From NCBI RefSeq assembly GCF_056712565.1, contig NZ_CM160072.1: a stretch of DNA of 64,000 bases, one strand, 5' to 3'. A program made the position numbers. Shown piece after piece: positions 58,501-61,500 of this stretch (positions are counted from its first letter, which is position 1; the number at the start of each line of letters is the position of its first letter).

Positions 58501-61500
58501 TAGCAGACTCGACCATTTTGGATGCTAACAAGGCTCTTGAGCATGGCATAATTAATTCCATAAAAACTGCAAGGCTGGCATCCAATCAGGCAAACTGGTG
58601 GGTTGTTTGATGGGTAAATCATGATTACTCCTTATAAAAAACCCACCTGACGGTGGGTTTAGTCAAACATAGTGTTTCTAAAGTCTCTCGCATACCCTGC
58701 TAACACTCTCATTCTATTATGATTGTTAGCAGACATGTGAGCTACAGGATGAAAAAGAGCAATCAATGAATACCTGTTCTCATCAAAAAGATTTTGTGCA
58801 TAAACGAGAGCGGTATTGGATGTTTTATGCCACTGCAACTTTTGCGGTGTGCTGATATCTGTGCCATTTTTTATTGGCTCAAATTTATTTTCACCAATTG
58901 CTAAATGAAGGTGCATAAGGCCTGCATCTTCAATATCAGGAGGTCGATGATAAGAGGTGTCTCTGCCAAAATAGCTGGGCAACGTTCCCGTAGACTTGTA
59001 GATGATAAAATCATCTACAAGTGTTTGTTTTAAATCAGGAAACTCAACAAAAACCGGGGAGAAAAAATAGTCAAAACTATCCTGATTATATTCCACGGTT
59101 ACTTGCATGTTTTACCTCAGTGGAAGTTACCAGAGTGAAACACACGAGTCCCGTGCTCAGCAAGCGCACGCAAACCAGCCATATCTACGGAACTATCAAA
59201 AACAACCGGAACACATGAGCGTTGTTTAATAAGACTATTCAGGTTGGTTACGGCAGATCTGGCATCAGCAACAACGATATAGATATCTCTTGCGATCTCT
59301 TTAAAATCAGCAGAAGCTTCTTTGAATACCGATTTCATTGCCCCTTCAAGTCCTCTCAATTGATGCTCTATCAATCGAGACTTTTCTGGTTCAATGATAG
59401 ACAACACATTGTCTACATTCTCATCGGTAGCGTTTGCAAGAACACGATAAGCGTATTTCAGCATTCGAGACAATTCTTTAATCGAAGACACCGCCTCATG
59501 AAGCTCATCATTAGCCCGTTCACTGCTGAATGAGGATTGATGGTAAGCGTGCTGAACGTTATCAGTAACAACCACCTCACAACTGAACGCAGAAGCTTGC
59601 TGTAATAGCAAACCTATTGCGACTCCAGCTTTGGCAGCGTTCAAGCTAAACATTTCATCAATCCCATTAGTCTCATTGCTCATACAAACCTCCTTCTTAT
59701 CGGAGATTATCAATAGCTATGCATCCATTGAATACACGCTATGCGCAATAAGTTTACGTCACGTGATATCATTATGCAACCACCGTTCTATCACCGACTA
59801 ACTTTACTCCCACTCCTATACATCATCTGGTATCCTGCGCAAAACTAAGGAGGTTGGTGTGAATGCTCAGTCTGTCATCATGGTTTTCCTTGGGCTGATT
59901 GTCGCAAAACTATATCCAGACTGGTGGAAAGGGGCATTAGCTACTGTCGCCATCTATTTGCTTTTATCCATCGTTAAGCGATCACTCGCTGAGACCGTAA
60001 ATCAAGCAAAACGTTTCTCATTTAAGAGTTTAATAAACTATGTTACTGGGCTTATTTTTTGCCTTTCAATTCTGATCGCTTCGGCTTTTTTGCCCGTATC
60101 AATAGCTAATTTTTTTGGCGCACCATATGAGGTAGGTTATCTATTCTCTGTTTCCTGTCTTGCCATTGCTCTTCTTTACCTGTGGACGAGATCAAAGAAT
60201 AAAAATTAGCCATCCGTGGCTGCCAGTTATTGAGCTTCTTTTTGTGATGCCTGTGCGACTCTGGTGAGCGATTGTGTGACCGTACTGATCGCTCTGTCAT
60301 ATGCTGTGCTACCTTTTGGCGTATTTGCCAGACGTAACAAGGCATTTCGTATAACAGGGCTTTCGTATGCCTTCGCAGCTCCTCCTACGACACCAGCAGC
60401 AGGAACAACAAACGCAGCCGTTTTTAGCATCCCCGCTAATACTGCTGCGTTTATGATGCCACCACCAACTAACAATCCATAAAGCTGCTGACCATTTAAG
60501 TTTTGAACGTTCGCTTTTGCCGCGTGTCTTGTATCGTTGAGGTATTTAATAACGCCGTCCAGTTCCTTTCCATGTACGCCTTTAAAGAAAGTTGCTGATT
60601 GCTTCCTGTTCCGGTGTAACGCATTAATAAACTTTTCAACACTAATATTTCCAGACGGATCAGTCGCCTTATCTACAGCATTCTGAACTATGGCTGCTCG
60701 TGCGTTTTGCCTACCATTGTCATCCAGAAGCCTGTAAAGCTGAGAACGTTCTGATGGGTTTTGGCTAAAAACGAGTTTTGTTACATCCTCAGGTGTAGCC
60801 TTGCCGCTGGCTATTGCCTTTTGAACGCGCGTTCTTCCCATCATGTCATTGAATCTAGCCCATGAGCGATCAACCCTAGACATATTGGCAGCTTCTTCTG
60901 AGCCTAGTTTTTGGGATACTGCTTTTTTCATATCCGCTGTATATGCCTTGTAGACAATATCGCTGGCTTTCTGGAGCGTGTCTTTATCAACAGTCTCGTT
61001 TGAATTCATGAACCGCTTTCGAAGGTCAGTTCTGTTTTCTCTCGCCAGACGCAGGTCATTGGGTCCGCTGGTGATATCGTCTTTAAATTGCTGCAAGACT
61101 TTTACCGCGGCTCTATCCTGAGATTTGCCCGGGCGGCTTAACACGGCAATCTGATTGTCGATAGCTTTTACCGTGTTTGAGAGATCGACAGGGGTATCCC
61201 CCATAGCGTCAATTATGCGGTTATATCGCTTTCCTGCTGCCTCAATGAATTTTTGTTGCCCTTTAGTCGCAGATTCATAAAGCTGTTTATCAGAAATGCC
61301 ACCCAGACCATCGCTAAATGTTCTGACTAAATTTTCTCGTGCTTGTTGTTGATTCAGCCGATTCTTACCGGTTCCAAAAAAAGGAACTCTTTCGCCTAAT
61401 GTCTGAGCCTGACTCTGCATAAAGGTTTTATCTTTCAGCGTGTCACTGGTCATTAACGGCAGGTTTCTTTCCGACGCAAAATCGACAGCAGCCTTTGCTT

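Follow-up and report, generated by a model that had tools for sequence, protein, structure and literature searches.

A small membrane protein gene convergent on gene 16 of a P22-like prophage: a candidate SieA analogue with no sequence relationship to SieA

What occupies the position of the superinfection-exclusion gene sieA in a P22-like prophage of Escherichia coli, and what might its product do to incoming phages? We consider this question for an open reading frame (ORF) at 59859..60209 (+ strand) of a 64,000-nucleotide stretch of contig NZ_CM160072.1 (NCBI RefSeq assembly GCF_056712565.1), the whole of which is called the window here. The window prophage is a P22-like element of E. coli sequence type 95 (ST95), 100% identical at this locus in S88, APEC O1 and ATCC 11775, and a preliminary description had placed the ORF where P22 encodes SieA and proposed that its product is either a SieA analogue or an unrelated membrane effector. 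Position and architecture are indeed analogous to those of SieA, whereas a sequence relationship is missing: judged by its sequence, the ORF is the founding member of an unnamed, previously undescribed family of small membrane proteins with four predicted helices. We tentatively suggest that the protein is a non-homologous SieA analogue, possibly acting in entry-level superinfection exclusion at the inner membrane by intercepting the gp16 conduit. To our knowledge, SieA is the only protein of the gene 16 slot in P22-like phages to have been studied, and it is present in only about a third of the sequenced phages of this type.

The gene and its protein

Coordinates and length of the ORF are exactly as first described, and the strong ribosome-binding site ascribed to it proves to be a 9-nt perfect match to the anti-Shine-Dalgarno sequence, TAAGGAGGT, read off the sequence at 59846..59854 (+). 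The coding sequence of 116 amino acids (aa) opens with GTG, 5 nt downstream of GGAGG, and closes with a TAG stop codon at 60207-60209. The S88 version in RefSeq, produced by the Prokaryotic Genome Annotation Pipeline (PGAP), is shorter (109 aa from the ATG at 59880; WP_011703616.1), and some other database records carry the protein lengthened upstream. We favour the GTG over the ATG at 59880 because four relatives at 35-41% identity (P0020-P0023), which have the N-terminus MNxQ..IIILLxLIVAKLYPD in common, place an ATG at exactly the homologous codon, and because GGAGG is retained upstream in nearly all homologous loci. Pairwise ratios of nonsynonymous to synonymous substitution (dN/dS) are 0.12-0.21 against the Yersinia copy and 0.34-0.52 between closer copies, and the ORF is a genuine gene under purifying selection.

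The polytopic, hydrophobic character of the protein was likewise borne out, with four hydrophobic segments in a Kyte-Doolittle profile (approximately aa 4-19, 25-39, 58-86 and 92-110) and four helices in an AlphaFold2 model of low confidence (pLDDT 65, pTM 0.39). In 11 of 11 aligned members, lysine and arginine residues (K/R) number 3-6 per member in the loop at 40-57, 1-3 in the C-tail and 0-1 in both short loops, and we therefore predict four spans with both termini on the inside (N-in/C-in), unless helix 1 serves as a signal peptide cleaved at IVA16|K. The most conserved block of the family alignment (aa 1-23; 59859..59927, +) consists of helix 1 and the turn motif A-K-L-Y-P-D/E-x-W, with mean per-segment identities of 77% and 68%, and includes the invariant residues K17, L18, Y19 and P20. 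Hydrophobic helix 2 (aa 25-39; 59931..59975, +), recovered by both Kyte-Doolittle and AlphaFold2, is followed by the K/R-rich loop (aa 40-57, five K/R; 59976..60029, +), which is predicted to be cytoplasmic and has the lowest mean identity, 36%. Hydrophobic helix 3 (aa 58-86; 60030..60116, +) carries the invariant residues Y61, G64, L65, F67 and P79, and hydrophobic helix 4 (aa 92-110; 60132..60188, +) leads into a basic, predicted cytoplasmic C-tail, RSKNKN (60189..60206, +), whose A-rich codons are the complement of the terminator-like T-tract of gene 16.

The family is small. Among 5.8 billion proteins, a single-sequence search recovered 19 clusters and a profile search 24, while a full HMMER scan of 1.84 billion representatives recovered 7 family representatives; the profile searches of both sets yielded no bridge to any named family. 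Neither the ORF nor its distant homologues had a significant match in Pfam, PHROGs or NCBIfam, a PDB sequence search was empty at E <= 1, and a BFVD fold search with the structural model returned only noise (top matches to holins at E ~1, best 0.93). Family members are hosted by E. coli, Salmonella, Yersinia enterocolitica, Edwardsiella tarda and some metagenomic contigs, and the family is absent from the species-representative genomes of GTDB. Of 5,426 complete E. coli genomes, 228 (about 4%) carry the ORF, among them extraintestinal pathogenic (ExPEC) ST95 and enterohaemorrhagic (EHEC) O111 lineages; 58 of these matches are at least 99% identical and represent the ST95 prophage, and 167 fall at 90-95%. 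One relative is chimeric: P0037 (131 aa; metagenomic contig L024, 1695-2090) shares the first 23 residues, MQGQTIIIILLGLIVAKLYPDWW, and is wholly different in the rest.

The comparison with P22 SieA, which the preliminary description had called for, speaks against a relationship by sequence. SieA proteins measure 162-164 aa in type A and more in types B and C, have three or four helices and conserve a cytoplasmic motif, FxRYPxEAxxFNK, near the C-terminus (PMC10883804). In profile comparisons by hhalign, which covered SieA types A and B, the ORF family reached a probability of 0.3% against type A and 0.1% against the type B protein of prophage HS1; the same method aligned SieA type A with type B at 99.5% (E = 1.4e-22) as a positive control. 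BLASTP of the ORF against SieA gave E = 0.29, and the motif, with three substitutions allowed, was found in 0 of 11 ORF family members and in every SieA checked. Precomputed Pfam annotation assigns no domain to any ORF family member, whereas SieA relatives carry PF26849 (PF26849.1); our local Pfam library was without PF26849 and the gp16 models, and its empty scan therefore says nothing on SieA membership. Membership in the SieA family is all but ruled out by the controlled hhalign comparison, the missing motif and the missing PF26849.

Linkage to gene 16 in prophages and satellite islands

Genes 16 and 9 of P22-like phages flank a hypervariable segment known as the 'ant moron' (Villafane et al. 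2008, PMC2629481). The ORF fits this cargo, lying in the 16-9 segment alongside mnt, arc, ant and sar, and it does mirror the sieA position of P22, with the same slot, a convergent arrangement and a gap to gene 16 of 17 nt here vs 22 nt in P22. The description of the gene as transcribed against the late operon stands as far as its orientation, opposite to the late genes, is concerned. Slot, moron and SieA-type exclusion as a concept were known before; the ORF family, which is unrelated to SieA, had not been described.

Gene 16 of the window (60227..62239, -; stop codon 60227-60229) encodes a DNA-ejection protein of the S88 type (phrog_770; 'P22-gp16 family' in RefSeq). The ORF converges on a gp16-family gene in 12 of 12 examined contexts with an intact downstream gene, at a gap of 17-23 nt. 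In 11 of these the gp16 belongs to the S88 type (61-94% identity), and this holds also at loci where the identity of the ORF is down to 35%; the twelfth, that of the chimera P0037, has another gp16 type (phrog_770, 2e-36). The neighbouring ejection protein gp20 is mosaic across the ORF loci, at 21-92% identity. Nucleotide identity profiles and blastn delimit a shared block that extends from the Shine-Dalgarno sequence of the ORF (~59841-59852) as far as the 5' part of gene 16 (~62000-62150). Upstream of this block, the DNA is unrelated from context to context, and neither alignment nor identity profiles reveal a conserved partner gene there that travels with the ORF.

Since the block starts at the Shine-Dalgarno sequence, it brings no promoter of its own. 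The divergent intergenic region upstream (59684..59845) shows no homology between contexts in the upstream alignment, and no site passed a consensus sigma-70 scan of the remaining 145 nt; by eye, an extended -10 candidate, TGaTATCAT, can be picked out at 59764-59772.

The junction itself carries a terminator-like hairpin, AGCCAcggaTGGCT followed by AATTTTTATT (60198..60221, -), which was returned by a terminator scan and lies immediately behind the stop codon of gene 16. It is kept in all ORF loci, with one compensatory change from G-C to A-T, and its predicted fold energy is unexceptional. We considered the hairpin as a hallmark of the ORF family and rejected it, as the 16/sieA junction of P22 (L002, ~3320-3345) also has a hairpin, AGCCAaggaCGGCa and TTTATTTTAT, after gene 16. 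The gp16 proteins of the window and P22 are only 30% identical, yet hairpin and T-tract are conserved, and the hairpin is therefore a gene 16 boundary feature of P22-like phages, not a feature of the ORF family. In both cases the A-rich complement of the T-tract encodes a basic C-tail, SKNKN* in the ORF and IKTIK* in SieA.

The block of ORF and gene 16 is also found in islands that are not prophages, one in Edwardsiella (L004) and many in E. coli (L008-L011, L019, L020, L028 and L029). Their backbone comprises a tyrosine integrase, AlpA, an antirepressor, a Toprim/DUF927 primase and PerC, they are integrated at tRNA-Thr/proA or yicG, and several of their proteins share RefSeq accessions with proteins of EcCIMP1, an E. 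coli phage-inducible chromosomal island (PICI) whose helper is the P22-like phage Kapi1, which was shown to mobilise it (Pick et al. 2025, PMC11773190). These EcCIMP1-like islands carry an ejection module with homologues of genes 14, 7, 20 and 16, within which the gp16 type is swapped between islands. All five sampled E. coli matches of the 90-95% class (picked by hand, as a sample and no census) lie in such islands, which appear to house the majority of the copies of the ORF in E. coli. The presence of the block in these satellites implies that they exchange DNA-injection modules with their helpers. We found no report of a co-transfer of ORF and gene 16 into EcCIMP1-like satellites in the literature searched, and it appears to be new.

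The ORF persists also without a functional neighbour. It is intact beside a gene 16 pseudogene (L028, L029), in an EHEC O111:H8 locus from which gene 16 is deleted (L018) and in the window, where a 1-bp insertion near 62044 relative to S88 shifts the frame of gene 16 and divides it into an N-terminal piece of 69 aa and a remainder of 593 aa, so that this prophage is unable to make full-length gp16. Its survival beside broken or lost copies speaks for an advantage to host or element that is independent of virion assembly.

Possible functions

SieA blocks DNA injection, the mutations by which phages escape it fall in the C-terminal regions of gp16 and gp20, and the membrane-bound component of the conduit is gp16 (PMC10883804). 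T4 Imm offers a second precedent, as it is reported to bind the pore-forming tape-measure protein of the phage (bioRxiv 10.64898/2026.03.06.709160). Other P22-like phages place further envelope proteins in the slot, both convergent on gene 16: HkcB in CUS-3 (phrog_5962; L027, 8603-8926) and ORF14 in N7 (phrog_10450; L016, 6010-6330). With SieA, these occupants make the slot seem reserved for envelope proteins, and the precedents together suggest that the most likely action of the ORF protein would be against the incoming conduit. A resident prophage or satellite would produce the protein, presumably in the lysogen, and it would sit in the inner membrane with both termini in the cytoplasm. The conserved AKLYPDxW turn would then face the periplasm as a candidate contact, through which the protein may intercept the conduit formed by the ejected proteins of an incoming P22-like virion, chiefly the membrane-bound gp16, and so keep the phage DNA out. 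Inheritance with gene 16 as one mosaic block, in P22-like prophages as well as EcCIMP1-like PICIs, would fit such a role. The strict gene 16 linkage and the retention of the ORF in defective elements lend circumstantial support that makes the functional analogy with SieA plausible.

Several observations weigh against this proposal. The family had no match among 50,697 phage records (tblastn, megablast) and its known members therefore all come from prophages and islands, of which some are defective. Defence models of PADLOC-DB v2 gave no match at E <= 0.1 for the ORF and three distant homologues. Phage N7 has a gp16 70% identical to the S88 type, yet an unrelated single-helix protein adjoins it, and the gene 16 linkage could be mere physical adjacency. 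The promoterless block makes expression of the ORF dependent on context, and it could be poor in the window, where a 1.2-kb cassette lies upstream. Finally, the ORF protein is nearly without extramembrane mass, whereas SieA has its conserved cytoplasmic motif.

Some of these points serve equally a second explanation, that the ORF encodes a lysogenic-conversion membrane protein unrelated to phage entry, such as a factor in stress tolerance, a transporter or regulator subunit, or a modifier of fitness or virulence, with a linkage to gene 16 that is physical only and reflects a recombination-poor junction. The ant moron does hold unrelated cargo (ClpP-like and YafO-like proteins, the latter a toxin, as well as DUF805 proteins, lipoproteins and a peptidase S9), the GC content of the ORF is moron-like in being low (39.9% vs 47.6% for gene 16), and both its spread through E. 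coli, ExPEC ST95 and EHEC O111 included, and the empty defence scan and the different neighbour in N7 would be in keeping with it. We nevertheless consider it somewhat unlikely, as the linkage survives divergence to 35% and passage through two kinds of mobile element while the upstream DNA is exchanged, and Pfam, NCBIfam and the PDB sequence search gave no similarity to a transporter or regulator family.

The proposal of a SieA analogue can also be taken further. The ORF family might add a fourth class, non-homologous to the others, to the entry blockers of the SieA type. Its proteins would, in the manner of colicin immunity proteins, recognise one gp16 type within the membrane, and their genes would for that reason move between P22-like phages and PICIs in company with the gene for that gp16, the satellites thereby both equipping their particles with ejection proteins of their own and excluding competitors. 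We regard this extended version as unlikely in its full form, although, if true, it could explain superinfection immunity from EcCIMP1-like islands.

A membrane-damaging abortive-infection or toxin effector, holin-like or a depolariser, that stays silent or neutralised until infection and then kills the cell is improbable. Besides the small size and polytopic nature of the protein, the case for it draws on a sub-threshold Pfam match to Phage_holin_3_6 (E = 0.065; 13.7 bits vs a cut-off of 28.4), on the holins at the top of the BFVD search, and on neighbouring genes, which include Abi, doc and ImmA cargo in the PICIs and the YafO-like toxin cassette in the window. The Pfam match, however, falls short of the gathering threshold and is insignificant, as are the structural matches, the model behind the latter is of low confidence, no conserved partner gene accompanies the ORF, and the P22-like lysis cassette sits elsewhere. 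It is a little harder still to credit a helper of the element's own gp16 in the producing cell, whether a membrane chaperone or a self-immunity factor against gp16 newly made in late expression. The strict co-inheritance with one gp16 type, also in satellites that carry the ejection-protein module only, is what such a helper would show, but the ORF lies on the opposite strand, outside the late operon, persists where gene 16 has suffered a frameshift, decayed to a pseudogene or been deleted, and is missing beside the related gp16 of N7 and from every sequenced phage searched. That the ORF is instead a strongly diverged, truncated member of the SieA family, as slot, orientation and polytopic membrane architecture would allow, is hardly credible given hhalign probabilities of 0.3% and 0.1% against the 99.5% control, the lack of FxRYPxEAxxFNK and of a PF26849 annotation, and a length of 116 aa vs 162-212 aa.

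Should the ORF protein block DNA entry, the slot would stand out as a general location of membrane proteins that block entry and pair with particular types of ejection protein, and the ORF would offer a second, far smaller tool for studying the insertion of the gp16/gp20 conduit into the inner membrane. ORF-type genes would also be a candidate class for superinfection immunity mediated by satellites. Without an exclusion phenotype, the ORF would be one more uncharacterised moron.

Prophage setting and comparison with known systems

In the window, the genes run from an endosialidase tailspike gene (-) through ant (-) with sar RNA, an arc-like gene (-), an mnt-like gene (+), a ClpP-like gene (+), a YafO-like toxin gene (-), a 188-aa gene (-) and the ORF (+) to genes 16, 20 and 7 (-). 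The ant, arc-like and mnt-like genes with sar RNA span 56424-58074, and the APEC O1 prophage, of the same type as that of the window, was figured in 2008 with its genes unassigned (PMC2629481). The mnt-like Arc-family repressor gene overlaps the start of the 178-aa ClpP-like gene (together 57784-58610; Pfam CLP_protease 2e-11), which suggests an operon and puts the gene for a Clp-type protease subunit within the immunity I region. A related E. coli prophage (L005) has the ORF 24 nt downstream of the ClpP-like gene, on the same strand. Comparison with that prophage by blastn identifies a 1,217-bp insertion cassette of two genes in the window (58624..59840, -), which splits the mnt-like and ClpP-like genes from the ORF. 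The cassette encodes a YafO-family toxin (58659-59108; Pfam YafO_toxin 3e-22) and, as its upstream partner, the 188-aa protein (phrog_8416), which is no YafN-type antitoxin. CUS-3 has a pair weakly similar to this cassette on the other strand (E = 0.005 and 0.047). Within the YafO-like gene, a perfect 13-bp hairpin followed by GTTTGTTTTA lies on the + strand (58994-59022) and would halt read-through from the mnt-like and ClpP-like genes to the ORF. We also considered whether the window holds CUS-3 proper and rejected this, as CUS-3 has another gp16 type and hkcB in the slot.

An IS2-like element of the IS3 family (1,330 bp, ~53707-55036; orfB 54120-55025) splits the endosialidase tailspike gene, which is uninterrupted in S88; together with the gene 16 frameshift, this insertion marks the prophage as defective. 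Rfam models place the sar antisense RNA opposite the ant start (57327-57393, 83.9 bits), three tandem naRNA4 elements of the repetitive extragenic palindromic (REP) type at 15351-15603 and a tRNA at 49528-49599, which may mark the prophage attachment site.

Among known systems, P22 SieA is the closest in layout. Both genes lie in the 16-9 slot of a P22-like prophage, convergent on gene 16 across a gap of ~20 nt that holds the same gene 16 hairpin, and both encode small polytopic membrane proteins whose C-tail is read from the complement of the terminator T-tract. They differ in sequence and in size, the ORF protein (116 aa, four predicted helices) lacking the FxRYPxEAxxFNK motif of SieA (162-212 aa, three to four helices), and in distribution, as the ORF also occurs in PICI satellites, from which SieA has not been reported. 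The other occupants of the slot, HkcB and N7 ORF14, resemble the ORF in position and in convergence and, at 106-107 aa, are likewise small and anchored in the membrane. Each consists of one N-terminal helix and a soluble or coiled-coil part; they are unrelated to the ORF in sequence and belong to PHROG families, whereas the ORF belongs to none.

Outside the P22-like phages, T4 Imm and HK97 gp15 are likewise small, phage-encoded membrane proteins, and both sit in the inner membrane and block DNA entry; the reported binding of Imm to the tape-measure protein of its own phage is the kind of mechanism that we propose for gp16. Both come from other phage types and genomic contexts, and the Pfam and PHROG scans found no similarity between them and the ORF. 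The immunity proteins of pore-forming colicins are reportedly small, polytopic inner-membrane proteins of about 100-180 aa, and their genes are said to sit immediately behind that of the membrane-inserting protein they neutralise, in convergent orientation, the two being inherited as cognate pairs. The analogy with the ORF is one of layout only, as a virion ejection protein takes the place of the toxin here, and the Pfam families of colicin immunity proteins and T4 Imm gave no match to the ORF at E <= 0.1, nor did NCBIfam.

EcCIMP1 provides the comparison nearest to the satellites. This island adds to superinfection immunity against Kapi1 by a mechanism that is unknown, and no known defence system was found in it (PMC11773190). 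Unlike the islands that carry the ORF block, EcCIMP1 itself (L017, E. coli MP1) is without an ORF homologue; its gp16 is a different one, of 906 aa and including a transglycosylase domain, and the gene after it encodes a 232-aa lipoprotein that has no match in the phage records and is a candidate for the superinfection immunity of that island.

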